A program made the translations under genes and the position numbers. The notes below the pieces were generated by a model. It saw only the letters and a program-made list of their open reading frames with translations. It was not told the origin of the DNA and ran no database searches. From Flavobacteriales bacterium (GTDB taxonomy: Bacteria > Bacteroidota > Bacteroidia > NS11-12g > UBA955): DNA of 64,000 nt. The stretch covers positions 12,175-76,174 of the forward strand of contig CANGWH010000002.1 of the NCBI GenBank assembly GCA_947457565.1, given 5' to 3'. Shown in pieces: positions 12,475-30,356 of the stretch (its first letter is position 1; every line of letters starts with the position of its first letter).

Positions 12475-12475
12475 T

Positions 12476-12895: not shown

Positions 12896-15800
12896 TTGAA
12901 CCGCGATAGAAACTATAGTAGATACGAAATTCAAGACGTCAATGAATTAGAATTTAGCACCTTACTAAATAGTGCAACCCTATTTCAGAAAACAACGAAA
13001 GAGAATATTGTTACCGCAATTTTGGCTTTATCAAAACAAATCCAATTTTACAATTACAACGGTGAAACTGACGGTGATTTAAAACGATTTTTTGCTAGTA
13101 GTTTACCATTAATACTACTGCACACAACCGGCGAATCCATTTCTCAAAACATTAGAGATGCCAAAGATCTAGGTATTCAAATTGAACGATTACGATTAAA
13201 AGGAAATGATATAAATAGAAAATTACGAAGTGATTTGACTCAATTAATACGCGTTCAGTTAGAGAACTTAGAATTATTGAAAAATTCAGCATTTAGTGAA
13301 CAAAAATTCATTGAAGAACTTCTACCGTCTTTTCAATCACTTTCAAAATTATACCTTGATTTTTTTAATAATTGTATTAGTGATGGTTTAATTCCCTTAA
13401 ACAGAAAAGTTAAGCAACAATTTTACAATTTACTGCCTGCTCCAGTCTTTAACTCACAAATATCTTCGGAACATTGGTCGGTACAATTACTTCAATACAC
13501 TAATATTCTTGATGAAATAGATTTATTATGGAAATCTATACAATCAGAATCAAAAATTTTACTACAAAATATCATTAAGGATCAAAGTATTGATCCAATC
13601 TCTTCTCTAGCTTTTGTTTTAGGTGATTTATTAGAGGAAATTGGCAAAACAAATACAGATACCATTGATAAGTCTATCGCTGATTATTTTTTTAAAACCG
13701 TTGCTAAAATTGCTCCTTTTGAAACCGTATCAGACACCCTATACGCTCAGTTTGAAGCAATTCCCAACGATGAAATCAAAACAATCCCTGAAGGTTTAAA
13801 ATTCAAAGCTCTAATATCTCCTGAAATAGATGATTTCAATGTAGAATTAACCTGCGCTGAAAATACACCTATCAATAATCAGGAAATTATTAATCGTAAA
13901 ATTGTGAATTTCAGTTGGGACCAAATCAATACTGAAATAACAGATCAAGTAATACAAATAAGATCAACCCCACCCACTCGATACCAACTTGAAAAATTAA
14001 AGGCTCAATTTACAAATCTAAAATCTCCATTTTATTTTACTGTTTCTAGTCCATTATTATCCGTCGATGGAAACACCGTTAAATGGAAAATTTCCTTAGA
14101 ATTTTCAACATTGAACCTGTTAACAATACTTGAAAATTCATTTGACAAAAATCCTGATCTAAAACGTAGTTACGACAATCTTTCAATTGAGGATATTTTT
14201 ACAAGCTGGATAGACAACGGTTTTCTTCTGTCGTATCAATCCACAGAATCGATTGTAGAATTATCAACAGATAGGATATTTTTCACAGCCCAAAAAACAC
14301 TAGAGCAAAATTATGAATTTTGTTGGTCTTTGATGCTTGATAGTGATGACCCACTGCCCGTAGCGAATCCGGATGGTAACGTTCAGTTAACCTTTAATTT
14401 CATAAACGACTACTTATTCCTTTATCCATTATTTTCCAATTTAAAACCCAATACACTATCAATTGAAACAAGTGTACTTGATGTAACCAATTTAGAATTG
14501 TTTAATGACTTTGGGAAATTAGATACTACAACACCCTTTAATCCTTTTGGTACAAGGCCAGAAATTGGGTCAAAGTTTTACGTAGGACACCCATTGCTAT
14601 TTTCTAATGCACTAACTAATTTAAAAATAAATTGGCAATGGTATGGCCTACCGGACACTAACGGTGGATTTAAAGAACATTACAATAATTACGATTTAAT
14701 TGAATCAAACGAAGATTTCCTAGTTTCCATTTCAAGTTTACAAGGAGGCACTTGGTATCCAGAAACCGATAAACAAGTACTGCCTTTATTTACTACAACA
14801 ACAATAACCGAGAACACAGAAGATAAAGCAATTTCAAATATTCGCAGAATGAATGAAATCAATCTTCAACACCTCAACCTAGATAAAACTCATCGTAATT
14901 TCGAACAACTAAAAGAACCAAATAAAAGTAAATTTGGTTATTTAGCCTTTGAATTATTTTCACCTGCCGGTGCTTTCGGGCACAGTCGTTTCAATGACTT
15001 GGTTCAACGGAATATGAACAATAAGAAACCGGCAACAGTACAAGAGCCCTACACGCCATTAGTTACTGGAATTTCGGTTGAAGCAGTAATGCATGAAATT
15101 GTTGCTGAGGATTTAATCAACACAAGAATTTCCTGCTTTGGTGTTGAAGAATTAATAATGAATCAAGAAATCATCTCTTCTTATTCGTTAATGCCACGAA
15201 CGAATTACCAATCCGCTATGTATCTGGAATTTTCCAATTTTGACGATGGTAAGGCAAGTTTATACTTTCAATTACCAGAGAGATTTAATGGCATTCAAAG
15301 TAAATCCAAGAAGCAATGGTATCAATGGGAGAATAAAAAATGGAATGAAGTTGAAACAGCAAACATAGTAAGGGATGAGACACTTGCATTTGAATGTTCA
15401 GGCCAAATTTTAATCAATGAACTAATTGAAAACGAACCCTATATTAATAACTGGCTTAAAGTTACATCCTTTTCAGACAATGTTTTAACCAGGGTTAATC
15501 AGGTTTTAACGCAAACAGTAAAATTCAATATCAACGGGAGTGAAAGCCCAGCTCATGACTTAGAAATTACCGGAATTGAGATCCCTGATGAATTTTCTCT
15601 CGCTATTGGTGAAGTGAAACCAATTCATCAACAATCAATAAAAGCATTGCCCAATTTAGGCTATAAAAACGGCCCCTATTCGTTCCAATTTAAAACTCAA
15701 AATCGAATTGCCGATTTACAAGATTTGAAGCAATTTTTATTGTTAAAATTTCCAAAAATTCAGGAAGTACTTATCATTTCACATAAAGACAACCAAGATG

Positions 15801-16498
15801 CTAACGTACCTGGTTTAGTTCGTGCCATTTTAATTCCTCGATCAAAAAGTGATAGTTTATCGATAGCAAACTGGCCAAAATTCTCCACGTTAGAATTAAA
15901 ACAAATACAACATTTTTTAAACGACCATTCGGTTGTTGGCTGTCAGTATTCCGTTGAAAACCCTATTTATGAAGAAATTGTATTAAAAGGCAATATTGTT
16001 ATCAAAGCAGGGGTGGATAAAAACGAAGCTTCGTTAACCATTAATCAAGCTGTGTTAAAAGGATTTTTAGACTTTACAGGGATACAAAAAAAAGGATTCA
16101 GCTTTGGAAAAAGTATTTATACATCGAAGATTCTGAGTATTATTCGAAATTTACCATTTATTCAATCGGTAACAAACTTTGCCTGTTATACACGATTCGA
16201 TAATGAATTGTTGCTACCGGAGAATTTTAATAGTTTAAATTATCGGGTTGAACCGTCTAATATTAATCACATTTTAATTCCATCGTCGCAGCATTTTCTT
16301 GAAATTAAAGAATCAAACAAGACCCTTAGCGATGGCATTGGGGTATCGAATATGGCTCTTGAAACAGATTTCGTTATTGACAAATCAAGATACCTGCAGA
16401 AAAATTTGGGAATCGGAAGTCGAAAATTAGGAATAAATTTGCAAATTAATGGGGATTTTGACACTGAAAATCATGCAATCACGGAATTATTTCTTTAA
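12896..16498 (+). CDS. Large baseplate J (T4 gp6)-like protein (Afp11/Pvc11-like), 1200 aa, TTG start
   Basis: The size and its position immediately after gp25 match the invariant gp25-gp6 synteny of contractile systems. There is no in-frame ATG for more than 60 codons, so the start is TTG at 12896, 3 nt after tandem TAA-TAG stops. Confidence 0.5.
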   Translation: MNRDRNYSRYEIQDVNELEFSTLLNSATLFQKTTKENIVTAILALSKQIQFYNYNGETDGDLKRFFASSLPLILLHTTGESISQNIRDAKDLGIQIERLRLKGNDINRKLRSDLTQLIRVQLENLELLKNSAFSEQKFIEELLPSFQSLSKLYLDFFNNCISDGLIPLNRKVKQQFYNLLPAPVFNSQISSEHWSVQLLQYTNILDEIDLLWKSIQSESKILLQNIIKDQSIDPISSLAFVLGDLLEEIGKTNTDTIDKSIADYFFKTVAKIAPFETVSDTLYAQFEAIPNDEIKTIPEGLKFKALISPEIDDFNVELTCAENTPINNQEIINRKIVNFSWDQINTEITDQVIQIRSTPPTRYQLEKLKAQFTNLKSPFYFTVSSPLLSVDGNTVKWKISLEFSTLNLLTILENSFDKNPDLKRSYDNLSIEDIFTSWIDNGFLLSYQSTESIVELSTDRIFFTAQKTLEQNYEFCWSLMLDSDDPLPVANPDGNVQLTFNFINDYLFLYPLFSNLKPNTLSIETSVLDVTNLELFNDFGKLDTTTPFNPFGTRPEIGSKFYVGHPLLFSNALTNLKINWQWYGLPDTNGGFKEHYNNYDLIESNEDFLVSISSLQGGTWYPETDKQVLPLFTTTTITENTEDKAISNIRRMNEINLQHLNLDKTHRNFEQLKEPNKSKFGYLAFELFSPAGAFGHSRFNDLVQRNMNNKKPATVQEPYTPLVTGISVEAVMHEIVAEDLINTRISCFGVEELIMNQEIISSYSLMPRTNYQSAMYLEFSNFDDGKASLYFQLPERFNGIQSKSKKQWYQWENKKWNEVETANIVRDETLAFECSGQILINELIENEPYINNWLKVTSFSDNVLTRVNQVLTQTVKFNINGSESPAHDLEITGIEIPDEFSLAIGEVKPIHQQSIKALPNLGYKNGPYSFQFKTQNRIADLQDLKQFLLLKFPKIQEVLIISHKDNQDANVPGLVRAILIPRSKSDSLSIANWPKFSTLELKQIQHFLNDHSVVGCQYSVENPIYEEIVLKGNIVIKAGVDKNEASLTINQAVLKGFLDFTGIQKKGFSFGKSIYTSKILSIIRNLPFIQSVTNFACYTRFDNELLLPENFNSLNYRVEPSNINHILIPSSQHFLEIKESNKTLSDGIGVSNMALETDFVIDKSRYLQKNLGIGSRKLGINLQINGDFDTENHAITELFL

Positions 16499-16512: not shown

Positions 16513-17217
16513 ATGGGGTCACGTAAACGTTCAGAATTAAAAAACTATTTTATTAAGGGAAGAATCCCAAAAGAAGAGGATTTTCAAGATTTAATTGATT
16601 CTACCGTCAACTTAATGGACGATAGAATTGACGTGGATGAAGATAATGGTTTGTTGCTTGAACAGAAAGAGAATAACGCCGTTGTAACCATTAGAAAAAG
16701 TATAGATAATGAAGACTCTTTTTGGAGAATAGAATTAGACGAAACGGATAATGATAGTTATCTACAGTTTAAGCATAACCAAAACGATATACCCATTGTA
16801 AGCTTATCGAAAAACGGCAATGTGGGTATCGGTATTGAAAAACCAATTCACAAACTTGACGTAGACGGGTTGATTGGATATCATGGTAGACTTGGTTATT
16901 ATCGATTTGGTGAAGTAAGTGCTGATGGCCAATGGCATAATATAATTGAAGGCATCTCTTCCCCTATGGCTGTTGAAGTTATAGCAAATTGTGGAGAAAA
17001 GGGAGCACATGCAATTACGCATGCTATTGCTGTTTGCACCTTTGGAAATAGTAAGGGTGGAATTCAAGCTACCCAAAATTATTTTGGCAGATCTAGAAAT
17101 AAAATTGAAGTTCGATGGTTTGGCGATTACTTCAATTATTCGTTGCAAATTAAAACCGGACGAGCATTTTCAAGGGAAACTAAAATAAAATATCATGTAG
17201 CTCTATTATGGGAATAA
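16513..17217 (+). CDS. Hypothetical protein (injection-system lineage-specific; fibre, adaptor or cargo candidate)
   Basis: A 234-aa ORF in tight operon context with no recognisable motifs. Confidence 0.45.
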   Translation: MGSRKRSELKNYFIKGRIPKEEDFQDLIDSTVNLMDDRIDVDEDNGLLLEQKENNAVVTIRKSIDNEDSFWRIELDETDNDSYLQFKHNQNDIPIVSLSKNGNVGIGIEKPIHKLDVDGLIGYHGRLGYYRFGEVSADGQWHNIIEGISSPMAVEVIANCGEKGAHAITHAIAVCTFGNSKGGIQATQNYFGRSRNKIEVRWFGDYFNYSLQIKTGRAFSRETKIKYHVALLWE

Positions 17218-17218
17218 T

Positions 17219-17419
17219 ATGGCATTATCGAAAAATTCAATTATAGAGCTAAATTTAAGTGCACAAGAAATCAATATTATCTTGGATGGTTTGGCTGCAA
17301 TGCCCTACAAAAATGTTTACCATTTAATAGAAAAAATCCACGCTCAAGTTAATACGCAGTCTAATCCTACCCATATAGGTAACCAAGATCCCAATTTTAC
17401 AAAAAAGTCCTCTCAGTAA
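17219..17419 (+). CDS. Hypothetical small protein
   Basis: A 66-aa ORF that fills the gap between operon genes exactly (1 nt after the previous stop). Confidence 0.35.
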   Translation: MALSKNSIIELNLSAQEINIILDGLAAMPYKNVYHLIEKIHAQVNTQSNPTHIGNQDPNFTKKSSQ

Positions 17420-17432
17420 AAACAAAACTGCA

Positions 17433-19970
17433 ATGAGTGACATTAACCAAAAGTATTCCATTGATGCGGAATTTGAAATTCCCGAGGCTTTCGATATATA
17501 TGCTTTAAGAGATAAAGGAATTAAACTAATTCAACAATACAGTGGTACAAGTTGGACTGATCACAACCTTCATGACCCTGGAATTACCATACTCGAGCAA
17601 ATCTGTTTTGCCATTGCCGATGTAAGTTACCAGACAACGCAAGCTATTGAATCTGCTATTGAATCGAATCAATTTGCGTTTAGTCCCTATTTCAAAATCG
17701 ACTCTACAACACCTTCATTTTATACTTTCGAAGATCTTGCTAAAATCATACAACAAGATGAACGAGTATACAAAGTATTCGTAATTCCCTCCTTAACCTA
17801 CCCCACTGTATCTGGAGTATACGATCTTGTAATTTTTTGTGAACAAGGTGCCAATAGAGAAGATGTAAAAAAATGGGTAAATGAGATTGCCAATCAATGG
17901 AGACCGTTATGTACTAAAATTGAAAGTATTCATTTACCGCCAATAAAACCAATTATTATTGATCTTGAAGTTGAGGTAAATTCAACAGAAAACATACAAG
18001 ATATTCTACAGTCCTATATAGGAGTTATTAAAGATTTTCTTAAAGGCAAAAACAATTCATTTACATTTTTTAACGAACAGATAACAGATCCTATATCTTT
18101 TTCAAAAAAAATAGGAATTCAATTACAAGCCGCTGACTTAGTTGCCGCAATCAATCAAATAAAATTCACTAAAGATATTATAAATATTAAATTAAAAGAT
18201 CCGGAACAAGAGTTTATTTGGACTTTAATTTTCGATATTCCTTATGAATTAACAATTGATCCAAAAAGTAAAATTACCTTTAAATATTCAGGGACTACAA
18301 TTCATGTATGTACAGACAAACAGTTATTCCAATTTGATAAAAAGAACCAATTTAAAAGAAAACAATCCAATTTCAGAGGTAATGACAATTTCAACCGATA
18401 CACCCAATTTTCGTCATTACAAAAAGGATTACCTTCTATTTATAACTTAGAACGCGATTTCAGAGACCCTATAAAAACAGAAGATGCCGGAGCGTTACAG
18501 CTGAAAGGTTTGCTATCGGTATTTGATCTTGTGATTTCTAATTTTATTGGAAAACTAGAAGTAATTTATTCGTTTTTAAATAAAAAACATATAAAATTTG
18601 CTGATTTAGCAGAGGATATGTTACTTAAAATACCCGGTATTGAATGGGTTTGGATTGATTTTATAAATAATTTTGAAGAAGTAAAAGTTACAAAAAGTAA
18701 ACCTCAACGGTATACCTATTGGAAAAACTACCTAAATACTTACAAAGATAAACTCCACGAAATGGTAAGTATGAGTTCACGAGCTGAACTCGACAATATT
18801 GAACAACTAATTTCATCCTATTTGTACCTTTTACAGTTAATGGGATTTAATTTAGAATTAATTGTAAAGCCACTTAAACAGTTAACAGCCCTAGATAGAG
18901 CATTCTATTTAGAACGATTATTGGAATATTGGATAGATAATAAAAATCATAGGATTCATACGCAAAACAACTTCTATCAAACTTCAATTCAGCCAAGCAA
19001 TACCGGTTATAGGGGTTTGATTTCAGCAATATTAAATTTAAACTTTGATACATTCAGCTTTTCTCAAAACATATCAAAAACATGGTCTAAACTAAGTAAA
19101 CCTGAGAATCATGCGTTCAAAATTGAACAAATAAAGTCAATTGCAGATTTATTTATTTATGGTAGAAATGAAAAGAATTATGTTTTGTCAGAAAAATCAG
19201 CTACAATAATTAAATCCCCAGACAATCCTATAGGTTTCATAAACAAATTTATTACCCAAGAGCAAATTGTTGATTTGTGCAGGAAACTTAAAGATATCCA
19301 TGATAAATCAGAAGGTTTTTTGTTATTTGAACATGCATTATTGGCCCCAGAATTAGAAGAATCTGTCTTTGGATTAAATTGTCAAATTGAGCATTCTTTA
19401 TATTTTTACATCGAACCCAATTATACTGTTAGAGATATTTACCGAAAAATATCAGAAATAGAGTCTTCTATAACCAATAACTCCTTTAAAATCATCACAA
19501 AAAATGAAGGTAAAAGGCAATATTGTAATTTTTTAATGATAGATGACACTGAATTTAAAATTGATAAATTTTATGGGGCAGAAAAGGACGGTGTTGAAGA
19601 CGCACAAAGAATAGGTAGAATTATCAGAGATAAAGGAATCAAATTTCATATTATCGATTACCTATATTACAGGTTCGCCAATCAAATTGATCCCTATAGT
19701 TTTACAATTTCACTTTGTTTTCCAAACTGGATTGACAAATTCGCTACAGCATCGCAAATAAATTCGATTTTACAAATTATTGATAAGACTGCCCCTCCAC
19801 ATCTTGTAGTTCAATGCAAATGGTTAAACCCTAAAGAGTTTGAGTTTTTAATGGAGAATTTCAATAAACTTACTAAAGGGAAGAGTATTGACACAGAGAA
19901 AAGTGCGGCAAGAATAAATTTATGTAATTTGCTAATGAAAGATGAAGTCCAACCATCTATTAATTCATGA
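17433..19970 (+). CDS. Large hypothetical protein, possibly an Afp12/Pvc12-like (gp7-like) baseplate component
   Basis: An 845-aa protein placed where Afp12 lies in canonical loci. It has no NTPase motifs and overlaps the downstream giant gene by 29 nt. Confidence 0.35.
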   Translation: MSDINQKYSIDAEFEIPEAFDIYALRDKGIKLIQQYSGTSWTDHNLHDPGITILEQICFAIADVSYQTTQAIESAIESNQFAFSPYFKIDSTTPSFYTFEDLAKIIQQDERVYKVFVIPSLTYPTVSGVYDLVIFCEQGANREDVKKWVNEIANQWRPLCTKIESIHLPPIKPIIIDLEVEVNSTENIQDILQSYIGVIKDFLKGKNNSFTFFNEQITDPISFSKKIGIQLQAADLVAAINQIKFTKDIINIKLKDPEQEFIWTLIFDIPYELTIDPKSKITFKYSGTTIHVCTDKQLFQFDKKNQFKRKQSNFRGNDNFNRYTQFSSLQKGLPSIYNLERDFRDPIKTEDAGALQLKGLLSVFDLVISNFIGKLEVIYSFLNKKHIKFADLAEDMLLKIPGIEWVWIDFINNFEEVKVTKSKPQRYTYWKNYLNTYKDKLHEMVSMSSRAELDNIEQLISSYLYLLQLMGFNLELIVKPLKQLTALDRAFYLERLLEYWIDNKNHRIHTQNNFYQTSIQPSNTGYRGLISAILNLNFDTFSFSQNISKTWSKLSKPENHAFKIEQIKSIADLFIYGRNEKNYVLSEKSATIIKSPDNPIGFINKFITQEQIVDLCRKLKDIHDKSEGFLLFEHALLAPELEESVFGLNCQIEHSLYFYIEPNYTVRDIYRKISEIESSITNNSFKIITKNEGKRQYCNFLMIDDTEFKIDKFYGAEKDGVEDAQRIGRIIRDKGIKFHIIDYLYYRFANQIDPYSFTISLCFPNWIDKFATASQINSILQIIDKTAPPHLVVQCKWLNPKEFEFLMENFNKLTKGKSIDTEKSAARINLCNLLMKDEVQPSINS

Positions 19971-22900
19971 GCTTGAAATAGACATTCAGGGAGTATCTGC
20001 AGAATGGGTTGAATTCCATCGAGAGTCCATCGTACAGAAACTTGTACAAATTTTTAACGATTTCCCGGAAAATGATCTGCAAATATTTCTCGAATTTATA
20101 TCCATTGATATCGGAAAATTCAATAACATTGGTGATTTTCTGCTTTTTCTTGACCTTGAGTTAACGCGATGGCGCCGTCAAATCCTAGAAGATAATTCAA
20201 TTAGCGAAAAACAAAAGTTAGAACCCAATTATTACTCAGACTTTTCCCAAAATGATTGGGATACTGTATTCCTTGAAACCAAAGATTTTTTCAATCCTGA
20301 ACTTGCAACGGACACCGATAAGTTAAAAATCAAATTCATTGAAATCTCTTCTCTATTACAACGAAATCGCGAACAATTTTGGAGATGGCTATTGGATTTA
20401 GGTATAAGTAATGAGTTGATAAGTAAATTTCGTAAATTCATTACCAATCAACAACTACCTAATGAAGCTATAGTTGCTTGGATTACCAGTATGATGGTTT
20501 TGAAGGATAAAAAACCCGATCAATCCTTCGAAAAAATACTCATTCAAATACTCTACAGAAACTTTACAAATTCCTATAAACTTTCAATATTCCTAAAAAG
20601 AAATGACGACGAATTTATACAAATACTGACAGCAAATACAAATAATAATCTCGCACCAGCTAACACGAAATTAATGGGCATTGAAGAATCGGATTGGCTT
20701 TATCTGGACTCCATTAATAATTGGCAGGAATTAGTTGGTTCTAAAATACTATCTCCTGAAATAATTAAGCAGATTCCTTTATCCTACCTCGTAAAGATTT
20801 TATCATCAAACAACTGGAATGATGATTCAATCTTTTGGGACAGTTTATCTCTTTTTTTAATTAATAATAATTTAATTAAAAAATCCGAATTACATAAACC
20901 AATTTCAACTGAGGATTCTCAACAAAAATTCTTCATCATTCAACAATGGTTTTTTAACACATTGCCCGCTGATGATAAAACCGCAGAAATTTCTACGGCA
21001 ATCTTAGTGATACTTTCTCTCAATCAAGACAAATCATCTACAGTAAAATTATTACAGGATTTTATTACTGAAATCTCACCCAATATTTCAACCGCCGAAT
21101 TTCTGCTATTCGAACAAATATGGATAGATATAATTCAAAAATTGAAAAATAATGAATATTCAATCAAATCGTTTAGTAATAAATTTCAGCAGATTTTCAT
21201 ACTAATTAACAAACTACTTAAAACAGAAGAACAGCCTAATTTCAACTTATTTGAATTTCTACAGTCAAAACCTATTGCAATTATCGTTTCAGAAAAAGAG
21301 ATAGATGTAACTCCACTATCAGCGAATGAACTTGGTATTAAAGAAAATGAATCCAATTATCTCTTAACCAATTTATATCGCAACTTTAAGTCTTTTGTAT
21401 CACTATTTCGTTCTAATGAAACGGTAGTTAATATCCTTATAGAAATCAGCAATAAAATTGCCGATAAATCGATTACGACAAATAAAGAAATCCTCCAAGC
21501 ATTTAGGCGCTATTATAAAATTAAAAAATTAGAGTTACTTACAAATTCTATTTCAGCGATTGATAAAAAATTCTTTGTTTCCAATAATATTAGTAATGAA
21601 CTAATACATTGGATTGATTGGATTAATTGGCTAAGTTTAAACCAGTATAAAAAAATCAATTTATCCTTTGATTTTTGGAAATTAACTTATTATAAAAAAG
21701 AAAATAATTCATCCAATCTATACGAAAAAATAAATACGAATATTATCAATATTATAAAAAGTGAAATTTCAGAATCACATAACAAAATTGATAATACACC
21801 TCCGTTATTTAATAAAGAAGAGCTGCTCTGGTTTGAGTCATTTATAGAGGAAATAGACAGTAATGTTTCATTAAATACAAATGATATATCCAATGAAACT
21901 CTAGAATTCTATTTTTCACTATTTAATTACATTCTAATTGAGGAAGCTAGTATTCAGAAATACAATAAATCAAATATTGAGCTACCTAACATTTCTCCTA
22001 ATACTAAAATAGAATTAATTATAGATCTTTACAAAAGACTAACCTCTCCAAATTACATCAATTTTACGTATGATTTATTACGAAAAATTGAAACGAATGC
22101 AGAACTGCAACAAACAAACAATCTCAGTTCTATTTATATATTCAGAGATTCTTTACGCTCAATAATTGAAACTAATTTATTCGAAAATTCAATTAATCAG
22201 ACGATAAAAAATGTACTATCCAAGTTGTTATTAGACCAATACGTTAATGATACAGAAACCAACCATAAATTGCCTGTTTCAGCGTATATCAATGCTGTCT
22301 TTGGCTTTTTTCTGTCATGGCAAGAACAATTAATTGAATTCCAGAAACAAAAATTTTCCAAAACAAATAATCAATTAGAACTTACTGCACCAAAGTTGAT
22401 CAATGCAATCCAGCTTTGGTTAGAAAGCACAAACGCCACATGGGTTAATCCTAAACAATTACCCGTAGAATTAGGAGAATCTCTTGTGGAATTTATGACA
22501 CAGTTGAAGAAAATTGATTTTATCTTTCAGGAGATTCAAGACAAGAATACCGATATTGATATTCAACAATTACAGAAAATTTATCAGTTAGATATTTCTA
22601 TTTTATTTTCTGACTTCTTTGATCAAATTAATTTTCAGCACGAAATTAGTGCAACAATAAAAATCAACTATTTACTCCAAAATAGTATTATAAAAACCAA
22701 TTTAATCATTAAAAATTTAATACACGAATTAATACCCCCTAGCTTCACTATAAATAACCTTATCTCCAATTATGCAGCCATTGGTGATAAAGTATTTGAT
22801 ACATTTATACCCACTTTAAGTGAAATTCATTTGTTTACACTTGTAGATATTCACAACCAATTACAAGAACAAACAAAGCATTTAATACTGAGTATCAATG

Positions 22901-25900
22901 AATATCAAAAATCGTCATTAGTAAATCCTTTCCAAGAAGATATTTTAAACAAAGCATATACGTTGGATATCAATCCTATTATTTTCAAAAATATTTCCAA
23001 AGTCCCCCTCTCTTATTCCATCAATACATGGACCAACAACTTAGAATATTCATATACCATTGATTCAATTTTAAACGACTCAAGTCTCTTTCTAAACCTA
23101 ATTCTAAACCAACATAGAATACCTATCGTTACTGTTACTAATTCTAATCAATCCATTAATAAATATATCTCGAAAGTTGAATTAATCAACGTATTATTTG
23201 GACATCCACGATGGAGAGAACTTTATGTACAATTAACAAGGCGAGAAGGTGAAGGGTTTAAGCAATTAGCCAATCAATTAAATATAGCGGACGTTTTTCT
23301 TATTGTAAACAATAAATTCCCAAGTTCCAATAACTATTCTACAGATATCGAGAACTTAATTACTATTGTTTTGTCCAATATTAATAAAAGTACTAATTTT
23401 TTACAAACGTTTAAATTTTATTGGATACAAATCACACAACCGCCAAATCCTGTAAGAATCCTCCAAATAATTTTAGAAACCTATTTAACGATAAATGAAT
23501 CGAATATTTTACAATTTATTCAATCAATAATAATTCCTTCAACGATATTCAAACGACTTCAGAAATCAGAAAAAAAAGCTCTCGATGAATGGATTAACAA
23601 TCAATTAAAAAATTTCCAACCACGAAAAGAGAATGAATTTTTCGAGACCATACAGCGATTAGAAGAGATTAACGCTATCCCCAAAGAACTAATTAATCAA
23701 ATCGTACTAAAGAAACAGAATTATTCCGTTCGAAATAATTCTCTTAATCAATCGAGGAATCTATCCTTTGATGATTCTAATGATATAAACAATATAATGA
23801 GGGGAAATGAAGTGGATAATAATTTAAAGGAACAACGGAGCGAATCAGAAGATAAATTATCAAGGGATATACCCAATAGCCCCGATCTGAATGAAATTGA
23901 GATAAATTTCACTAATGAAACTACTGAGAAAAAACAAATAGAATTTACCGCTTTCGATGACCCAAATCTAAATGAGTCAACCACGATTGAAGGAAACAAT
24001 GTATTACAAACCGCTGAAAATAAAACAGTCCCTATACTTCCTGGCACGAATCCTTCAAATTCAGCAGATCAAGAAGCTAGATTAATAGATTTCAATACAC
24101 TAGACAACAACAATAATATCCAACAAGAATCATCTCAAGATTTCGTTTCAATCTTCGAAAAAAACAATAACAGTTGGAGTACATTAATTAAGGAAATCAA
24201 CTATAAACTTTTAAGTACCCCAACTATTGCTGAAACCGTTATTGCCGAACAAGTATATTTAATTGCTGAAAAGAAACTACCCAACAATACCGATATAATA
24301 GAGCTTCAAGGCTTCTTTAGGAAAATAATAACCTACAGTATATGGTTTGAGCTATTAGACATTATTCCAACAACCATTTACAGCAGTTTTAATTCATTCT
24401 CGGTTTCCCAAAAAACAGGAATTATAACCTTAATAAAAAACTCAAAAACAAATATTTCAAATGAAATAAAAGTAAAATTTTTAAGTCACATTATTTGGGA
24501 ATATTTAAATTCAAAATCAACGCATTGGCTAATTAAACCCAGTTTTGATTCAGTAACGAGTCTACTCATTGAGATAAAAACTATTAAGCCTTTGCTGTTT
24601 TCAGAGATATTAGCTCAACCTACATTTAAAAAAATTCTAATAAATCGTCAATGGAATTTGCCGATTCAAGAATTCAAAGAATATAGTGACAACCTAAACA
24701 TAAAAGCAAAGCCCATTGATGCCCAGCAAAATATCAACCCCTCAAATAAGGCCATTTATTTCCCAATAATTGAAACTAACTGGGCTGTTTGGCAACAACT
24801 GGACACTCCTTCTGACTCTACCAATATCGAGATTATCCGCTCTATATTAAACAAATATTTATCTTTAAACTATAGCAAATCAAACAGTGTATTAACGTGG
24901 ATAGATTCTTTATTAAGTTTAACCTATTTTAACGAAAAAAATCAATATCCCGAATTTTTATTCAACAAACTGATTATCAATCAATGGATTATAAATGGAA
25001 AAACAAATTTTACTCGATTAAAAAGTGACTCGATTTTCTCTATTTTCAATTACACTATTAACCAAATATCTGGTAATAATGATTTAACTCGACTACCATC
25101 GTCCATTGGTATTAATTTTCATAAAAGTATCGAGGGTCTTTCAAAAGTAGAAGACGAGAGTTTACTTCAAGAAATTGATAACAACTTTAAATTATTAAGC
25201 GACTTTTTTGTAGAAATAGCTACTAAGGTTAAAGATAGAACTACTAACTTAAATACTTCTGAAATTTTAAATACTGTAGAAATTACTGAAGTGCTTAATT
25301 TGAATTTAATCAAACTGTTACTTTCAACTAAACAGCGGAATGCTGATTGGTTCAACAACAATTTTGAATTAAATCAATTTGACAAAATTATTACGTTCAC
25401 CCTAGAAGAACTAGAACTACTTACAACCAAAATATCATCTAATGAACCTAAAATATTAATTACCCAATTAAATCAATTTCACCAATTTATAATTGAATTC
25501 AACAACGGTAAAAACTCCGATAACAATCCGATTTATTGGCAGGTGAGTATAACTGTAATTATTGATGCATTAATTAAGAAATCAATTAATTTATTAAATA
25601 AATATGGTAATAAAACTACTGTAAATAGCCTTTCACAATATCCGATTTTTTCGATTGATGACTTTTTTGATAGTGAATTATTAATTGAGTCGCTTAAAGA
25701 AACTGCGAATTCATCGTTAGAATTAATACGTAAAACGTTGAATCTCACCTCCAATATTGAAACCAGTCTGGTAATATATTGGCTATCTGAAAATTTCAAT
25801 TTCCATCTATCTGAATTTAAACCCTCAGATAATCCTTTGTTAGAAATATTCTTCGATAAATCTGAACAAATACCTGAATCTGATCATGTAATAGAACTTT

Positions 25901-27129
25901 TGGTCCAACAATTAATTGAACTCAACTACGAAGCAGGTTTTAGTACAGATGAGTACTTTATTGAAAGTTTAATTCCATCATTATTGTTATCATTTACCTA
26001 CAGCAGGCCGCAACAAATTAATGAAATTATAGAAAATCGACTCTCGGAAGAATGGAATGAATCGGATACCGAAGAAGATAATAAACAGCCATTATCGAAA
26101 CTAGAAAGTAAAATAAATGAGTCTACTAGCAGCACCGTTGATTCCAACCAAGTTGTTAGTTCCAACAATGTTAAAAGTAGCAAAGATATCAGCTTGAATC
26201 GTAGCAATGGAAGTGACTCAGGAGTTGGTTTAAAGAATGAGGATGACCAAACATTGGGCAATACTGAAGATAGCAGCGTAGGATCAAGTTCCGCACCAAC
26301 CATTCAATTGCCTTATTCTAGAGAATCCATTACGCAGCAACTATTTAAAAATACACCTAATATTTATGGGTCGCTCCGAGAATCATTTATTGAAATTTCG
26401 AATAAAATCAACCCCTCTGAAATTGAAAAACTTGTTGCAAGGATAAAGTCAGCATGGGAGAATCAAATAAAAGCAAGACAAATAATAGAAGGCCATTTAC
26501 AGCAGCCCAATTTATTTAAGGCTATAGAATCCATTCCATTAAATAAAAAAATTGAAATTAAGACAACTAACGAAGTAAAACAGGATAATTCTGCAATTAA
26601 AAAAGCCGTTAACCAAGGGACTCGATTTGCAACTGGGCTTTGTGGAATGATAATGTTAGCACCCTATTATGGGACATTATTTCGCAGAATGAATCTAATT
26701 GAAAATAATAATTTCAAATCGGAAACTGAACAATTAAAAGCTTATTCCATTATATTCCAATTGGCTAAATTACACGAAGAAACACCAACCGATTATCAAG
26801 ATTTAGTACCTAGAATTATAGTGGGCATTCCACCAGAAGCTACGGTTACGGGAATTGTACAATTAAGCGAAGAGGAATTAGAAGAAATTGAAAAATTTTT
26901 AACAGCAGTTAAGGCTCAATGGAAACTCATGAATAATGTAAGTTTACGCGGATTTATTCAATCATTTTTGTTAAGAACCGGTAAAGTCTGGAAAGAAGGT
27001 GATAAATGGAAGATAGAGGTTGACACCCACGGCGCAGATATTATATTAAAAACCGTACCTTGGGGTTTCTCATTTATAAAATACCCTTGGAATCCTTATA
27101 TTATTGAAACCAAATGGGAATTGGAATAA
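19942..27129 (+). CDS. Giant 2395-aa low-complexity, predicted alpha-helical protein; candidate tape-measure (Afp14-like) or cargo protein
   Basis: One uninterrupted ORF, strongly N/I/K/L/E/Q-rich. It has an S/D/E-rich segment near aa 2050-2150 and a more complex, roughly 250-aa globular-looking C-terminal region (GLCGMIMLAPYYGTLF...WKIEVDTHGADIIL). It is the last gene of the operon. Confidence 0.6.
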   Translation: MKSNHLLIHELEIDIQGVSAEWVEFHRESIVQKLVQIFNDFPENDLQIFLEFISIDIGKFNNIGDFLLFLDLELTRWRRQILEDNSISEKQKLEPNYYSDFSQNDWDTVFLETKDFFNPELATDTDKLKIKFIEISSLLQRNREQFWRWLLDLGISNELISKFRKFITNQQLPNEAIVAWITSMMVLKDKKPDQSFEKILIQILYRNFTNSYKLSIFLKRNDDEFIQILTANTNNNLAPANTKLMGIEESDWLYLDSINNWQELVGSKILSPEIIKQIPLSYLVKILSSNNWNDDSIFWDSLSLFLINNNLIKKSELHKPISTEDSQQKFFIIQQWFFNTLPADDKTAEISTAILVILSLNQDKSSTVKLLQDFITEISPNISTAEFLLFEQIWIDIIQKLKNNEYSIKSFSNKFQQIFILINKLLKTEEQPNFNLFEFLQSKPIAIIVSEKEIDVTPLSANELGIKENESNYLLTNLYRNFKSFVSLFRSNETVVNILIEISNKIADKSITTNKEILQAFRRYYKIKKLELLTNSISAIDKKFFVSNNISNELIHWIDWINWLSLNQYKKINLSFDFWKLTYYKKENNSSNLYEKINTNIINIIKSEISESHNKIDNTPPLFNKEELLWFESFIEEIDSNVSLNTNDISNETLEFYFSLFNYILIEEASIQKYNKSNIELPNISPNTKIELIIDLYKRLTSPNYINFTYDLLRKIETNAELQQTNNLSSIYIFRDSLRSIIETNLFENSINQTIKNVLSKLLLDQYVNDTETNHKLPVSAYINAVFGFFLSWQEQLIEFQKQKFSKTNNQLELTAPKLINAIQLWLESTNATWVNPKQLPVELGESLVEFMTQLKKIDFIFQEIQDKNTDIDIQQLQKIYQLDISILFSDFFDQINFQHEISATIKINYLLQNSIIKTNLIIKNLIHELIPPSFTINNLISNYAAIGDKVFDTFIPTLSEIHLFTLVDIHNQLQEQTKHLILSINEYQKSSLVNPFQEDILNKAYTLDINPIIFKNISKVPLSYSINTWTNNLEYSYTIDSILNDSSLFLNLILNQHRIPIVTVTNSNQSINKYISKVELINVLFGHPRWRELYVQLTRREGEGFKQLANQLNIADVFLIVNNKFPSSNNYSTDIENLITIVLSNINKSTNFLQTFKFYWIQITQPPNPVRILQIILETYLTINESNILQFIQSIIIPSTIFKRLQKSEKKALDEWINNQLKNFQPRKENEFFETIQRLEEINAIPKELINQIVLKKQNYSVRNNSLNQSRNLSFDDSNDINNIMRGNEVDNNLKEQRSESEDKLSRDIPNSPDLNEIEINFTNETTEKKQIEFTAFDDPNLNESTTIEGNNVLQTAENKTVPILPGTNPSNSADQEARLIDFNTLDNNNNIQQESSQDFVSIFEKNNNSWSTLIKEINYKLLSTPTIAETVIAEQVYLIAEKKLPNNTDIIELQGFFRKIITYSIWFELLDIIPTTIYSSFNSFSVSQKTGIITLIKNSKTNISNEIKVKFLSHIIWEYLNSKSTHWLIKPSFDSVTSLLIEIKTIKPLLFSEILAQPTFKKILINRQWNLPIQEFKEYSDNLNIKAKPIDAQQNINPSNKAIYFPIIETNWAVWQQLDTPSDSTNIEIIRSILNKYLSLNYSKSNSVLTWIDSLLSLTYFNEKNQYPEFLFNKLIINQWIINGKTNFTRLKSDSIFSIFNYTINQISGNNDLTRLPSSIGINFHKSIEGLSKVEDESLLQEIDNNFKLLSDFFVEIATKVKDRTTNLNTSEILNTVEITEVLNLNLIKLLLSTKQRNADWFNNNFELNQFDKIITFTLEELELLTTKISSNEPKILITQLNQFHQFIIEFNNGKNSDNNPIYWQVSITVIIDALIKKSINLLNKYGNKTTVNSLSQYPIFSIDDFFDSELLIESLKETANSSLELIRKTLNLTSNIETSLVIYWLSENFNFHLSEFKPSDNPLLEIFFDKSEQIPESDHVIELLVQQLIELNYEAGFSTDEYFIESLIPSLLLSFTYSRPQQINEIIENRLSEEWNESDTEEDNKQPLSKLESKINESTSSTVDSNQVVSSNNVKSSKDISLNRSNGSDSGVGLKNEDDQTLGNTEDSSVGSSSAPTIQLPYSRESITQQLFKNTPNIYGSLRESFIEISNKINPSEIEKLVARIKSAWENQIKARQIIEGHLQQPNLFKAIESIPLNKKIEIKTTNEVKQDNSAIKKAVNQGTRFATGLCGMIMLAPYYGTLFRRMNLIENNNFKSETEQLKAYSIIFQLAKLHEETPTDYQDLVPRIIVGIPPEATVTGIVQLSEEELEEIEKFLTAVKAQWKLMNNVSLRGFIQSFLLRTGKVWKEGDKWKIEVDTHGADIILKTVPWGFSFIKYPWNPYIIETKWELE

Positions 27130-28439: not shown

Positions 28440-30356
28440 ATGAAAATAGTTTTAAGACATACCCATCTCTTACGCACGCTTTTCGCATTTTTTTGTGCAG
28501 CCACTGTCCAATATGGAACACAAGAACTATTTGCACAAACTGACATTAAAACACCGAGTTTAAATTCTCAAATTGAAGCATTTAAAAATTCGGACACCAA
28601 AGAAAAAAAAGAAAAAACTGGCAAGATAAAAGCCTTCATATCCGATACTATACCAACCTACACCGAAGCATTTGGCACATATTTAAAGGAAGTATTAGAA
28701 TATCAGAATCGCCTGGATTACTTAGACGGAGTTAAGCCAACAGCTAATGCCAAACCTAATGCTCAAACGCCAAGACGTGTATTAGAGTTGAATTATTACC
28801 AAACGGTAAAAAAGGCCAATGAAAAAGATTGGACAGGTTTAGAGTATTTGCCTTTTAACGAGAACAATCGCTCCAAAGAAATAAACAAAGAGGTTTATGG
28901 TTTTCATTGTTATTGGCAGGGAAATAAATATGAAAAGTACGATTGGAATGCATTAACTAGAATTGGATATGTTGGGTACGAAATAAATCCAGGAAATGGT
29001 TCCCCTGTTTCCACCCATAATTGGCGGAATACGGCATTACATAAACGAGCAATGCAATACGACGTAGATGTTGATATTGTTGCTAGTATTCGAGGAATTT
29101 CCAACACCAATACTTTTTTAAGTAGAAAGGAAAGTTGGAAAACCTTTGCAGATTCTCTTGTACAATTGCTTAATTTTAGCCAAGGAGATGGTGTAGTGTT
29201 AGATTTCCCTGATGTAAATAAGCAAAATGCTATGGCTTTTGTGGAATTTACACGTTTAGTAAAATATGTACTGAATGAGAATTCGCCACGATTTGAAGTA
29301 GGAATTGCACTACCCCCAGTAGACATTAACAAAGGATTTTCAGTAAAAGACCTAAAAGGGATTGCCGATCGATTTATAATATTTGCCTTTGATTACAACG
29401 ATTTCCAAGGTGTTTTTTGTGCTCCCAATGCTCCGATGCTATCCCCTAACTCCGATGCGTACAGCATGGACAGAAGCTATAATTTCTATGTTGCACAAGG
29501 GATGTTGCCAGAAACTATTACCATGGTTTTGGGAATGTACGGTCAACAGTGGGTTATGGATCAGCCGAACCCTATGAATTCAAAGGCAATTTTTGGTAGG
29601 ACGTTTTCCATTTTCGATTTCGAAGAAGACATGTTAGTTAGATTTAAACCTAACTATGACGATAAATCATTCCAATACTATTCTACGTATTCTTTGGGTG
29701 GGAAATGGATGGTTAATTGGTGTGAAAATATTTATTCGATTTCTATAAAGTCAGATTATATAAATAACAAGAAAATTGGAGGGATTGGATTCTGGGATCT
29801 TGCTCAAACCGTTAGTGGCAATGAGACATTAACAAAATTCTGGCCCTTGATTTATAAAAAATTCTCTAAACAAGACGCCAAACTTCCCGATCAAATTATT
29901 AATCAGTTCTCTGGAATAGGTAATTATAACATGGATAGTATTATTGCCTCGAACGATGCGTTAATAATGTCGGCAATTGATTTAGCTGAAAATCCATTTT
30001 TACCCGAGCAAATAGATACTAAACTATTATCAAAAGCACAGAAAAATGGTTTCCAATATAAGGAATTGGCGAAAGCCATTGGATTGCTTTTTACAATTTT
30101 AAGTGTTTGTGCTGCCATTGCCTTAGTATTTGCAATGTTCGATGAAAAGGCAAGAGAAGTTGTTTTGCACGAACACGGTGCCATGTTATTTGCACCAATA
30201 GCAATGATTTTAGTAGTAATAACTCTTAGAGTTACTAAAATAATACTCAATTCCGAAATGGAATTCCTAATTGGTGCATTATTTGGAATTGGAAGTTATT
30301 ATTTGATACAATATTTAAAGAATCGACAAATTCAAAACAATGAAGAAACCCCTTAA
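28440..30356 (+). CDS. Secreted GH18 (chitinase-like) domain protein with degenerate catalytic motif and C-terminal TM helices
   Basis: It has a signal peptide. DGVVLDFPD stands where GH18 has DGxDxDWE, so the second Asp and the catalytic Glu are replaced. GIGFWDLAQT matches the GH18 C-terminal barrel motif. The C-terminal roughly 100 aa contain 2-3 TM helices. Confidence 0.45.
   Translation: MKIVLRHTHLLRTLFAFFCAATVQYGTQELFAQTDIKTPSLNSQIEAFKNSDTKEKKEKTGKIKAFISDTIPTYTEAFGTYLKEVLEYQNRLDYLDGVKPTANAKPNAQTPRRVLELNYYQTVKKANEKDWTGLEYLPFNENNRSKEINKEVYGFHCYWQGNKYEKYDWNALTRIGYVGYEINPGNGSPVSTHNWRNTALHKRAMQYDVDVDIVASIRGISNTNTFLSRKESWKTFADSLVQLLNFSQGDGVVLDFPDVNKQNAMAFVEFTRLVKYVLNENSPRFEVGIALPPVDINKGFSVKDLKGIADRFIIFAFDYNDFQGVFCAPNAPMLSPNSDAYSMDRSYNFYVAQGMLPETITMVLGMYGQQWVMDQPNPMNSKAIFGRTFSIFDFEEDMLVRFKPNYDDKSFQYYSTYSLGGKWMVNWCENIYSISIKSDYINNKKIGGIGFWDLAQTVSGNETLTKFWPLIYKKFSKQDAKLPDQIINQFSGIGNYNMDSIIASNDALIMSAIDLAENPFLPEQIDTKLLSKAQKNGFQYKELAKAIGLLFTILSVCAAIALVFAMFDEKAREVVLHEHGAMLFAPIAMILVVITLRVTKIILNSEMEFLIGALFGIGSYYLIQYLKNRQIQNNEETP

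Follow-up and report, generated by a model that had tools for sequence, protein, structure and literature searches.

The tape measure protein of AlgoCIS, Alg14, is a tunable ruler with a coefficient of 0.229 nm/aa, and its experimental lengthening and shortening resulted in the predicted change in particle length, with the lumen capacity of AlgoCIS also scaling with tape-measure length. Across contractile injection systems (CISs), a slope of 0.2156 nm/aa with an R2 of 0.84 has been obtained, and the tape measures of eCISs have been described as mixed alpha/beta at their ends and helical in the middle, which varies in length. In the published phylogenetic grouping, AlgoCIS, MAC and tCIS are placed beside T6SSiv. 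The T6SSiv of Aureispira is uniformly 420 +/- 8 nm, which has been attributed to its cis14, and this gene is essential for assembly, which is abolished by IS insertions in it.

In the window, which is the whole 64,000-nucleotide stretch of DNA analysed in this study, we identified a CIS operon of 15 genes at positions 4765-27129, all on the forward strand and with cis14 as the last, as listed below.

4765-5124, forward strand: orf119, the first gene of the operon, small, with TM-like hydrophobic segments (Kyte-Doolittle 19-residue maximum 2.47; no Pfam match)
5128-5694, forward strand: cis16, cap or tail terminator (Pfam Pvc16_N, E 1.1e-16; in PDB, the tCIS All3327 and AlgoCIS cap)
5703-6539, forward strand: orf278 (no match in Pfam, PHROG or PDB)
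6579-8444, forward strand: cis2, sheath (Pfam Phage_sheath_1C; best PDB match the AlgoCIS sheath 7adz, E 7.7e-129)
8489-8920 and 8975-9451, forward strand: two gp19-type inner tube genes (Pfam Phage_T4_gp19, E 1.1e-40 and 4.7e-20)
9648-10394, forward strand: CIS_tube-family protein (Pfam CIS_tube, E 1.5e-24)
10401-12161, forward strand: cis8, VgrG-like spike (Pfam Phage_base_V and Phage_GPD)
12175-12474, forward strand: PAAR tip, 99 aa (ORF; PAAR_motif on orthologous products)
12464-12889, forward strand: cis9, gp25-like sheath initiator (Pfam GPW_gp25, E 8.1e-15)
12896-16498, forward strand: cis11, baseplate-J-like, 1200 aa (in PDB, All3317 (7b5h), E 2.4e-25, and Alg11 (7aeb), E 1.7e-21)
16513-17217, forward strand: orf234, present in all syntenic loci (no family or PDB match)
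17219-17419, forward strand: orf66, an unassigned but conserved cluster gene found at every syntenic locus
17433-19970, forward strand: cis12, baseplate protein (in PDB, Alg12 (7aeb_A), E 4.3e-20, and All3315)
19942-27129, forward strand: cis14, giant CIS tape measure protein gene (ORF of 2395 aa plus stop; Pfam PF19268 CIS_TMP)

The PDB matches indicated that the best solved relatives of these structural proteins are those of AlgoCIS and Anabaena tCIS, and there was no characterised system among the best 120 matches of the sheath search. The CIS_tube-family protein is likely to be the tube initiator, as we infer for its role. The CIS cluster contained no recognisable gene for a Cis15 ATPase, a tail fibre or a cargo protein of the DUF4157 or toxin type. 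The lack of a tail-fibre gene and the occurrence of orf119, a small TM protein, as the first gene would be no more than hints of a cell-anchored mode, as in the T6SSiv of Amoebophilus and Aureispira.

The final gene of this co-directional and tightly packed cluster, cis14, is a single ORF starting with ATG, with the size and terminal position that had been assigned to it in a preliminary description of the locus. Its start overlaps the upstream cis12 by 29 nt, and the overlap is identical in the related loci L001 and L002. Because about 8% of random codons are stops at about 30% GC, the occurrence by chance of 2395 codons without a stop has a probability of about 1e-86. The residue bias noted earlier was also borne out, as the protein is rich in I (12.3%), L (11.2%), N (10.6%), S (9.3%), E (8.0%) and K (7.4%) and poor in Ala (2.6%) and Gly (1.8%) compared with housekeeping genes (7.6 and 7.2%, respectively). 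To call it low-complexity was, however, an overstatement, since no 40-aa window had an entropy of less than 3.0 bits, with a mean of 3.55 compared with a background of 3.75, and no internal repeats were found by self-BLASTP. The GC content of cis14 was 0.301, compared with 0.41-0.42 in alaS and PEPCK, in agreement with the higher AT content than in flanking housekeeping genes that had been pointed out. This feature is not specific to cis14, because cis11 (GC 0.327) and cis12 (GC 0.305) share it and the GC3 of cis14 (0.267) is no lower than theirs.

The assignment of the product as a tape measure, which had been proposed from its position, was strongly supported by the match to Pfam PF19268 CIS_TMP at aa 2116-2392 (E 1.8e-39), with a score of 136.8 bits compared with the cut-off of 27.8. 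An exhaustive HMMER search with the C-terminal domain as the query indicated that CIS_TMP is located at the extreme C-terminus in all 8060 family representatives, and the alignment of the giant and short tape measures (short TMPs) by hhalign gave a probability of 100% with an E of 2e-45 for the C-terminus. The relationship with the C-terminus of Afp14 was confirmed by pairwise BLASTP, where aa 2247-2394 aligned with 384-530 of the 535 aa of Afp14 at 27% identity (E 2e-12), thus ending within 5 residues of the Afp14 C-terminus, and by the family profile, which matched Afp14 with a probability of 99.4% (E 3.5e-21). Afp14 had been taken to be a large protein, which is incorrect in view of its length. 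A member of the 90% cluster to which the cis14 protein belongs also carries the NCBI name 'contractile injection system tape measure protein'. As for phage TMP families, no relevant PHROG match was found in five segments of the cis14 protein, the single hit being to a family of unknown function (E 0.0057). No tape-measure chain was found in PDB with the C-terminal domain alone or with a 44-sequence family profile, the best E in the PDB searches with tape-measure sequences and profiles being 0.06 for a spurious helical match. Word-indexed searches returned only 6 proteins with the full protein and only 4 with an alignment of 10 giants, because low-complexity words saturate the candidate list.

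The domain plan of the cis14 protein was delineated as follows, with the dN/dS values estimated in comparison with the assembly L018.

19942-20691, forward strand: N-terminal conserved region, aa 1-250 (48-71% identity among orthologs; dN/dS 0.18)
20692-23691, forward strand: helical block 1, aa 251-1250 (1000-1025 aa in four orthologs; dN/dS 0.27)
23029-23691, forward strand: better-conserved central module within block 1, aa ~1030-1250 (by ortholog identity)
23692-24141, forward strand: linker 1, aa 1251-1400, N/S/E/D-rich (predicted coil; indel hotspot)
24142-26061, forward strand: helical block 2, aa 1401-2040 (640-654 aa in four orthologs; dN/dS 0.23)
26062-26331, forward strand: linker 2, aa 2041-2130, Ser-rich spacer (S 24.4%; predicted coil at 2039-2126)
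26332-27126, forward strand: C-terminal CIS_TMP domain, aa 2131-2395, mixed alpha/beta (Pfam match at aa 2116-2392)

At the N-terminus, aa 2-74 were found by hhalign to correspond to the N-terminal module common to ordinary CIS tape measures of about 480 aa, matching positions 3-86 of the short TMPs with a probability of 70-86% and an E of 5e-6 to 4e-5, which provides moderate confidence only. The motif I-x-I-D-I/L-G-K in this module is shared with short TMPs as I-(E/D)-I-D-L-G, and Pfam reported only the C-terminal stretch of the protein and not this module. The conserved C-terminal domain, which had been estimated at about 250 aa, was exactly 265 aa and gap-free in each of the four orthologs, whose identity at aa 2201-2395 was 83-98%, and it had a dN/dS of 0.03. 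Since CIS_TMP occupies the last ~265 aa and the short-TMP module the first ~75 aa, the expansion sits between conserved ends, and the protein has retained both end modules of an ordinary tape measure of about 450-550 aa, with about 1900 extra residues between them.

For the region between the ends, AlphaFold2 models of both halves of the protein indicated 60% helix (102 helices with a median of 13 aa), 2% strand and 39% coil, although these figures are only indicative of helicity because the models, built from 4-sequence alignments, were of low confidence (mean pLDDT 38 and 33). The earlier view of an almost entirely helical protein was, hence, exaggerated. In the same low-confidence models, block 1 consisted mainly of short helices with a beta-hairpin at 1060-1076, and block 2 was helical apart from one coil at about 1564-1615. 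The identity of block 1 among orthologs was 18-40% at aa 251-1050, rising up to 42-66% at aa 1051-1250. The Ser-rich spacer that had been noted is present as linker 2, which varies from 81 to 189 aa among orthologs with a dN/dS of 0.51, but it is one of two main spacers. The other, linker 1, contains 18.7% N, is predicted to be coil at 1268-1400, varies from 56 to 150 aa and has a dN/dS of 1.06 and a 6-aa indel with respect to L018. There are better-conserved internal modules at aa ~1030-1250, 1401-1550 and 1901-2040, which a pure ruler role does not explain.

The giant size of cis14 was shared by its relatives. Orthologs in syntenic loci were 2318-2448 aa, and complete relatives in the clade were all 1756-2509 aa, within a CIS_TMP family in which lengths span about 300-2509 aa and fall into classes that follow lineage. 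A genome scan with the clade patterns found only MAGs (Bacteroidia, Flavobacteriales and the label 'Chitinophaga pinensis'), with no cultured relative and no Aureispira among them. The label 'Chitinophaga pinensis' of the MAG is apparently a placeholder. In sequence, cis14 has diverged rapidly, with 50% identity to the L001 ortholog at the protein level, whereas 10 of the 12 neighbouring genes showed 84-97%, the exceptions being orf993 (73%) and orf66 (79%). The dN in this comparison was 0.41, compared with 0.02-0.08 for eight neighbours and 0.20 for orf993. The synonymous sites of cis14 were saturated in the comparisons with L001 and L002 and unsaturated in that with L018, by which the overall dN/dS was determined to be 0.28 and in which indels were confined to linkers. 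Diversifying selection on cis14 was considered and rejected, as dN/dS with respect to L018 was below 1 everywhere except in linker 1, where it was about 1.

Such fast divergence could raise the concern that the ORF is a decaying, mis-assembled or artefactually fused gene with a meaningless size, and several database entries for a related protein do comprise C-terminal halves only (1252 and 1294 aa). These entries, however, result from 100-N scaffold gaps inside the gene, and the frame is open up to the gap. Intact ORFs are present in at least nine independent complete giant genes of 1901-2492 aa in other MAGs and in four other assemblies (L018-L021) of near-identical or closely related strains, the overall dN/dS and that of the C-terminal domain indicate constraint, and there was neither internal duplication nor a fusion signature. 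This concern is, thus, effectively refuted, and we regard an artefact or decay as extremely improbable. The 1252- and 1294-aa entries were also considered as IS or frameshift switches, as in Aureispira, and this was rejected in view of the 100-N gaps in an otherwise open frame. A tandem fusion or internal duplication of two tape measures was likewise rejected, as self-BLASTP was empty and all 21 inter-region hhalign probabilities were 1.2% or lower.

In our interpretation, cis14 is probably a Cis14/Afp14-type tape measure of a chromosomal CIS of the AlgoCIS / thylakoid-CIS / T6SSiv lineage and a true ruler for a machine of about 360-550 nm. If it works as Alg14, Afp14 and the tape measures of phages do, a few copies of the protein would thread the lumen of the growing inner tube, with one end held at the baseplate or spike, and the tube and sheath would polymerise along it to its far end, where the Cis16 cap would then bind, so that the length of the protein would set that of the machine. 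The extra residues between the end modules make up two long blocks, of about 1000 and 640 aa, which are built of short helices and connected by disordered linkers rich in N, S, D and E. Among four orthologs, the length of the helical blocks is kept to about 1-2% at about 30% identity and that of the linkers varies 2-3-fold, and this conservation of block length with free sequence, like the published work on Alg14, is indirect support for the ruler role.

It was also considered that only part of the protein, for example aa ~1401-2395, threads the tube, with the N-terminal ~1250 aa serving as an assembly scaffold or chaperone platform or as a connection to the cap or antenna, or being cleaved off, which would make the machine shorter than full scaling. 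Linker 1, with its 150 aa (56-150 aa among orthologs) and neutral evolution, does split the protein, directly after the better-conserved central module with its beta-hairpin, and the predicted coil accounts for 39% of residues. Phage tape measures are sometimes proteolytically processed. However, the short-TMP N-terminal module is located at the extreme N-terminus and not after linker 1, and therefore both functional ends flank the whole expansion; the region after linker 1 is unlike that module (hhalign <1%). Block 1, moreover, has a length conserved to about 1% between orthologs, which would be expected of a segment that adds to length, and in sister clades linkers have shrunk to 16-33 aa, with block 1 extended to 1051-1395 aa and eight of the nine complete proteins in our alignment A1 (the ninth being 1756 aa) at total lengths of 2171-2509 aa. 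It is, hence, unlikely that only a part of the protein measures.

With cis14 as a full ruler, the predicted length of the machine is about 360 nm at 0.15 nm/aa, about 410 nm by the tube-only ratio of AlgoCIS (90.2 nm / 526 aa) and about 515-550 nm by the published whole-particle coefficients of 0.2156-0.229 nm/aa, a wide range in which the coefficient, being calibrated on proteins of about 370-660 aa, may not extrapolate to 2395 aa. Because 39% of residues are predicted to be coil and the two linkers are near-neutral, not every residue need add length. The machine would, by this estimate, be 3-4.5 times as long as a typical eCIS of about 120 nm and within the range of the 420-nm T6SSiv of Aureispira. 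The preliminary description had left three options, namely partial use, a second function as an effector or cargo, and an unusually long particle. The last is best supported, with the end modules at the extremes, the conserved block lengths and the published precedent, whereas positive evidence for an effector or cargo was lacking. Thus, cis14, about 4.5 times as large as the classic tape measure, most likely specifies an unusually long injector of roughly 0.4-0.5 micrometre, rather than a toxin.

A combined role as a ruler and payload could nevertheless be supposed, in which the protein is expelled on firing and its enlarged middle acts on the target, for example by membrane perturbation or binding, or in which it is the main lumen content of a machine with no separate cargo. 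The cluster with neither a DUF4157 or toxin-type cargo gene nor a Cis15 loading ATPase, the evolution of cis14 far faster than its neighbours, as can be the case for target-facing proteins, and the internal conserved modules are consistent with such a role. The tape measures of phages are ejected and are capable of forming channels in membranes, and Tme of Streptomyces davawensis provides a precedent as a tape-measure-related CIS effector of >2000 aa. However, searches of Pfam, NCBIfam and PHROGs found CIS_TMP only, with no catalytic, toxin, enzyme or DUF4157 domain, and there was no TM-like segment (KD19 maximum 1.34), so that the hallmarks of Tme (DUF4157, TM helices and a C-terminal nuclease) are all absent. 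The dN/dS of 0.23-0.27 in the helical blocks, with values of about 1 only in linkers, indicates relaxed constraint and not diversifying selection, and the cargo and ATPase may simply be encoded elsewhere in the genome. We, therefore, consider this combined role to be quite improbable. It is similarly doubtful that the expansion of about 1900 residues, with its conserved internal modules, is itself delivered as the payload of a half-micrometre injector or serves in it as a scaffold for cargo docking, with the linkers as processing sites or elastic joints; if this were true, one gene would encode both the length of the machine and its payload.

If the scaling holds for cis14 as a ruler, uncultured lake Bacteroidota build injectors of about 0.4-0.5 micrometre, which would be near the top of the known CIS sizes and about as long as many bacterial cells are wide. 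With 22 tube layers per 90.2 nm, as in AlgoCIS, about 85-130 layers of tube and sheath would be necessary, a number that would constrain cell geometry and require a large investment of protein. The clade could also serve as a natural test of the ruler model, in that the sequence of cis14 drifts almost freely while the helical blocks keep their lengths and both end modules are preserved, and its naturally long rulers (1750-2500 aa) may be of use in engineering for tuning the length and lumen capacity of CISs. The conceptual picture of how CIS length is set is unchanged by cis14.

Among the known systems, AlgoCIS is similar in that the sheath, Cis11, Cis12 and cap in the window all match its PDB chains, with the sheath match the best overall (E 7.7e-129). 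The plan of the cis14 protein is as described for eCIS tape measures, among which Alg14 is an experimentally established ruler. In contrast, Alg14 is 526 aa for a 120.6-nm particle, and the protein in the window is 4.6 times as long and has long disordered linkers; the tail fibres, Alg15 ATPase and DUF4157 cargo (Cgo1/2) of AlgoCIS have no recognisable counterpart in the window cluster. Afp14 of the anti-feeding prophage of Serratia entomophila (pADAP) shares the homologous C-terminal ~150-165 aa, the position after Afp11-13-type baseplate genes and the common NCBI and Pfam family name. It differs in its length of 535 aa and in having the genes for the Afp15 AAA+ ATPase, the Afp16 cap and toxins after it, whereas in the window the operon carries its cap gene at the start and ends with cis14, and the sheath matches Afp/PVC much more weakly (~1e-51 to 1e-63) than AlgoCIS or tCIS. 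The CIS cluster of S. davawensis likewise encodes a protein of >2000 aa, Tme, which combines disordered and helical parts and is loaded into the particle, but Tme is distinguished by DUF4157, multiple TM helices, a C-terminal EndA-like nuclease and kinship with phage tape measures; the cis14 protein is without these features and its C-terminus is CIS_TMP. The T6SSiv of Aureispira sp. CCB-QB1, known as the ixotrophy system and for its 'rhapidosomes', also belongs to Bacteroidota and has a cis1-cis16-type cluster including a tape measure. Its machine has been observed at 420 nm, and the length predicted here, entirely by analogy, is of the same order.

The open reading frame at 19942-27129 (+) was confirmed to start with ATG and to encode 2395 aa, as previously assigned. 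Because stop codons account for about 8% of random codons at a GC content of about 30%, such a giant open frame does not arise by chance, the probability for 2395 aa being about 1e-86 (both values by our own arithmetic, the latter from composition). The intact gene was also found in four other assemblies (L018-L021) of near-identical or closely related strains. The possibility of an artefact or a pseudogene was refuted, the half-length database entries being due to scaffold gaps. In several metagenome scaffolds, the orthologous gene is interrupted by a gap of 100 N (9665-9764 in scaffold L022 and 9791-9890 in scaffold L023), so that their entries represent only the C-terminal halves (1252 and 1294 aa), and these assembler breaks seem to fall in the variable middle of the gene.

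The biased amino-acid composition pointed out in the preliminary description was borne out, with I, L, N, S, E, and K together making up 59% of the protein and with A and G at 2.6% and 1.8%, compared with 7.6% and 7.2% in the housekeeping proteins of the window. The term low-complexity was an overstatement, as no 40-aa window had an entropy below 3.0 bits and no internal repeat was detected by self-BLASTP. The high AT content was real (GC of 0.301, compared with 0.41-0.42 for alaS and PEPCK) but was not specific to this gene: cis11 (0.327) and cis12 (0.305) had comparably low values, and at GC3 the giant gene (0.267) was not below either of them. The AT-richness is therefore a feature of the operon's distal half and of the amino-acid bias, and not a sign of foreign origin of this gene.

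The only Pfam match of the giant protein was CIS_TMP (PF19268), with aa 2116-2392 aligned to positions 291-463 of the 463-position profile (E 1.8e-39). In an exhaustive HMMER search using the last 296 aa as the query, which yielded 8060 family representatives, this domain was at the extreme C-terminus in every match listed. The archetype, Afp14 of Serratia entomophila pADAP, has 535 aa, and its gene is followed by those for the Afp15 ATPase and the Afp16 cap. The comparison of the C-terminus with Afp14, which had been proposed earlier, was positive (aa 2247-2394 with Afp14 384-530, 27% identity, E 2e-12), and a family profile including the C-terminus from the window matched Afp14 with 99.4% probability. 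Thus, the CIS_TMP match and the Afp14 alignment indicate that the interpretation as a tape measure was right. At the other end, the first ~75 aa aligned with the N-terminal module of family members of ~480 aa (hhalign 70-86%, E ~1e-5), the motif I-(E/D)-I-D-L-G being common to both. The rest of the protein, when compared by hhalign with either end module, with itself, and with the middle of a short tape measure, stayed below 2% in all cases. A tandem fusion or repeat expansion was rejected, as there was no resemblance to other parts of itself or to the end modules. Judged from these alignments, the giant protein is an ordinary tape measure of contractile injection systems (CIS), the two ends of which are separated by ~1900 additional residues. 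It adds a new and very large protein to a known family and is already recognised by Pfam and NCBI. Among the top matches listed for the family, lengths of 300-600 aa were the most frequent; a second group had 900-1500 aa, and at least 14 proteins formed a tail of 1900 aa or more. The length classes clustered by lineage in a rough NJ tree.

The internal anatomy was mapped from an alignment of four orthologs (2318-2448 aa) and from AlphaFold2 models of two halves, which were mutually consistent. The models were of low confidence (mean pLDDT of 38 and 33, from 4-sequence alignments), and secondary structure alone was used. Synonymous sites were saturated against L001, the closest distinct ortholog, and dN/dS was therefore determined using the closer variant L018 (dS ~0.06).

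Regions of the tape measure (19942-27129, +), with lengths in the four orthologs and dN/dS against L018 (whole protein, 0.28; cis12 as control, 0.07)
aa 1-250: N-terminal region; 48-71% identity among orthologs; dN/dS 0.18
aa 251-1250: helical block 1; 18-40% identity over aa 251-1050; 1000, 1014, 1025, and 1025 aa; dN/dS 0.27
aa 1251-1400: linker 1, Asn-rich coil; 56-150 aa; dN/dS 1.06
aa 1401-2040: helical block 2, with a shorter coil at ~1564-1615; 640, 654, 644, and 644 aa; dN/dS 0.23
aa 2041-2130: linker 2, 24% Ser; 81-189 aa; dN/dS 0.51
aa 2131-2395: C-terminal alpha/beta domain; 83-98% identity over aa 2201-2395; 265 aa in 4/4; dN/dS 0.03

The predicted secondary structure was 60% helix (102 helices with a median of 13 residues), 2% strand, and 39% coil in these low-confidence models, so that "almost entirely helical" went too far. 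A central module (window 23029-23691, aa ~1030-1250) showed 42-66% identity, far above the surrounding helical block, with several columns invariant across ten giants and a predicted beta-hairpin; it matched neither known families nor the two end modules.

Against L001, the tape measure showed 50% protein identity with 25 gaps and a dN of 0.41. For the neighbouring genes, the identity was 84-97% with 0-1 gaps in 10 of 12, the others being orf66 (79%) and orf993 (73%, 10 gaps), and the dN was 0.02-0.08 for eight neighbours and 0.20 for orf993. Indels against L018 were confined to the two linkers. Selection on the tape measure is relaxed purifying, diversifying selection being rejected by the dN/dS profile. 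The sister clades combine short linkers (16-33 aa) with a longer block 1 (1051-1395 aa), and eight of the nine complete proteins in the alignment that includes them have 2171-2509 aa, the ninth having 1756 aa; all complete genes in the wider clade fall within 1756-2509 aa. Such a pattern, the sequence being nearly free and the block lengths and end modules conserved, is expected of a molecular ruler. It is unlikely that only part of the protein is used for measuring. This reading is kept open by the neutrally evolving linker and by the conservation of the central module, and is weakened by the conserved length of block 1 and by the fact that the N-terminal module shared with other family members lies at the very start of the protein.

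The giant gene is the last in a close-packed, co-directional operon (4765-27129), in which the intergenic gaps are 1-54 nt, except for one of 196 nt, with two overlaps.

Order of the CIS operon
4765-5124 (+): gene 1, orf119, with TM-like segments
Genes 2-7: Cis16 cap, orf278, sheath, two gp19-type tubes, CIS_tube protein
Genes 8-14: VgrG-like spike, PAAR, gp25, Cis11, orf234, orf66, Cis12
19942-27129 (+): gene 15, the giant gene

The closest solved machines by sequence were AlgoCIS (sheath E 7.7e-129, with Alg11, Alg12, and the cap also matched) and the thylakoid-anchored CIS of Anabaena, PVC and Afp being far more distant. The cap gene follows the tape measure in Afp, whereas cis16 is at the operon start in the window. 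The 119-aa product of orf119 is strongly hydrophobic (Kyte-Doolittle 19-residue maximum of 2.47) and had no family match; a role in membrane anchoring or in the regulation of firing is conceivable. No Cis15/Afp15-type AAA+ ATPase, recognisable tail fibre, or DUF4157/toxin-type cargo gene was found in the cluster or the annotated parts of the window. The missing fibre gene and the putative small membrane protein at the operon start may be hints bearing on whether the system is an eCIS (released) or a T6SSiv (cell-anchored). That the giant protein is a ruler plus payload is unlikely in our judgement, although the cluster encodes neither cargo nor an ATPase and the conserved internal modules at aa ~1030-1250, 1401-1550, and 1901-2040 are unexplained. 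There is no positive evidence for this reading: the protein contains no other domain and no TM-like segment (Kyte-Doolittle 19-residue maximum of 1.34), and it lacks the features that define the Tme effector.

The operon is flanked by housekeeping genes (alaS, PEPCK, dnaG, nadE, gldB, and others), and the entire neighbourhood is syntenic in related metagenome-assembled genomes, indicating a stable chromosomal locus. The relatives are all uncultured Bacteroidota, several of which bear lake-series names.

Genes downstream of the CIS operon
28440-30356 (+): GH18-like gene, just downstream of the cluster and kept there in all syntenic relatives
31060-34041 (-): ORF of 993 aa without a Pfam match, surpassed in divergence only by the tape measure within the neighbourhood, adjoining a Plug-domain TonB-dependent-receptor-like gene
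36755-39766 (-): 1003-aa nSTAND1 NTPase fused to WD40/beta-propeller repeats (E 1.9e-95), syntenically conserved a few genes past the CIS locus
46907-48031 (-): GldB gliding-motility lipoprotein gene (E 6.3e-43), which marks the host as a gliding/T9SS-type member of Bacteroidota

In Persicobacter psychrovividus, the cap gene of the plasmid-borne CIS locus also has a GH18 gene immediately upstream (L025, 3079-4836); the two proteins share 27% identity over 361 aa (E 2e-41), and hydrophobic C-terminal tails are apparent in both. The GH18-like gene may encode a payload, or it may be accessory to the CIS, with cell-wall remodelling as one conceivable role.

Returning to the tape measure as a ruler, Alg14 (526 aa) is reported to set the length of AlgoCIS, the closest solved system, at 120.6 nm, and when its helices were duplicated or deleted, the particles measured 138, 161, and 89 nm, compared with predicted values of 132.5, 152, and 85 nm. 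Across CIS, the regression of length on tape measure has a slope of 0.2156 nm/aa (R2 0.84). By analogy, copies of the protein would run through the lumen of the tube from an anchor at its baseplate end, and the tube and sheath would grow along them by polymerisation until capped by Cis16. The size estimate for 2395 aa was 359 nm at a helical rise of 0.15 nm/aa, ~410 nm from the tube-only ratio of AlgoCIS (90.2 nm/526 aa), 504-553 nm with coil residues extended, and 516-548 nm from the published coefficients. A machine of roughly 0.4-0.5 micrometre, 3 to 4.5 times the length of a typical eCIS, may thus be expected from these known systems. Among the options raised earlier, an unusually long particle is the best supported, given the N-terminal module at the extreme N-terminus and the conserved block lengths. 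Giant CIS rulers already have a published precedent in Aureispira, a predatory member of Bacteroidota: its T6SSiv is uniformly 420 +/- 8 nm long when extended, which has been attributed to cis14, and IS insertions in this gene abolish assembly and killing. The present case is useful for its clean natural ruler signature and for the half-micrometre injectors predicted in uncultured lake Bacteroidota, the host having broad gliding/T9SS biology in common with the ixotrophic predators that use long T6SSiv.
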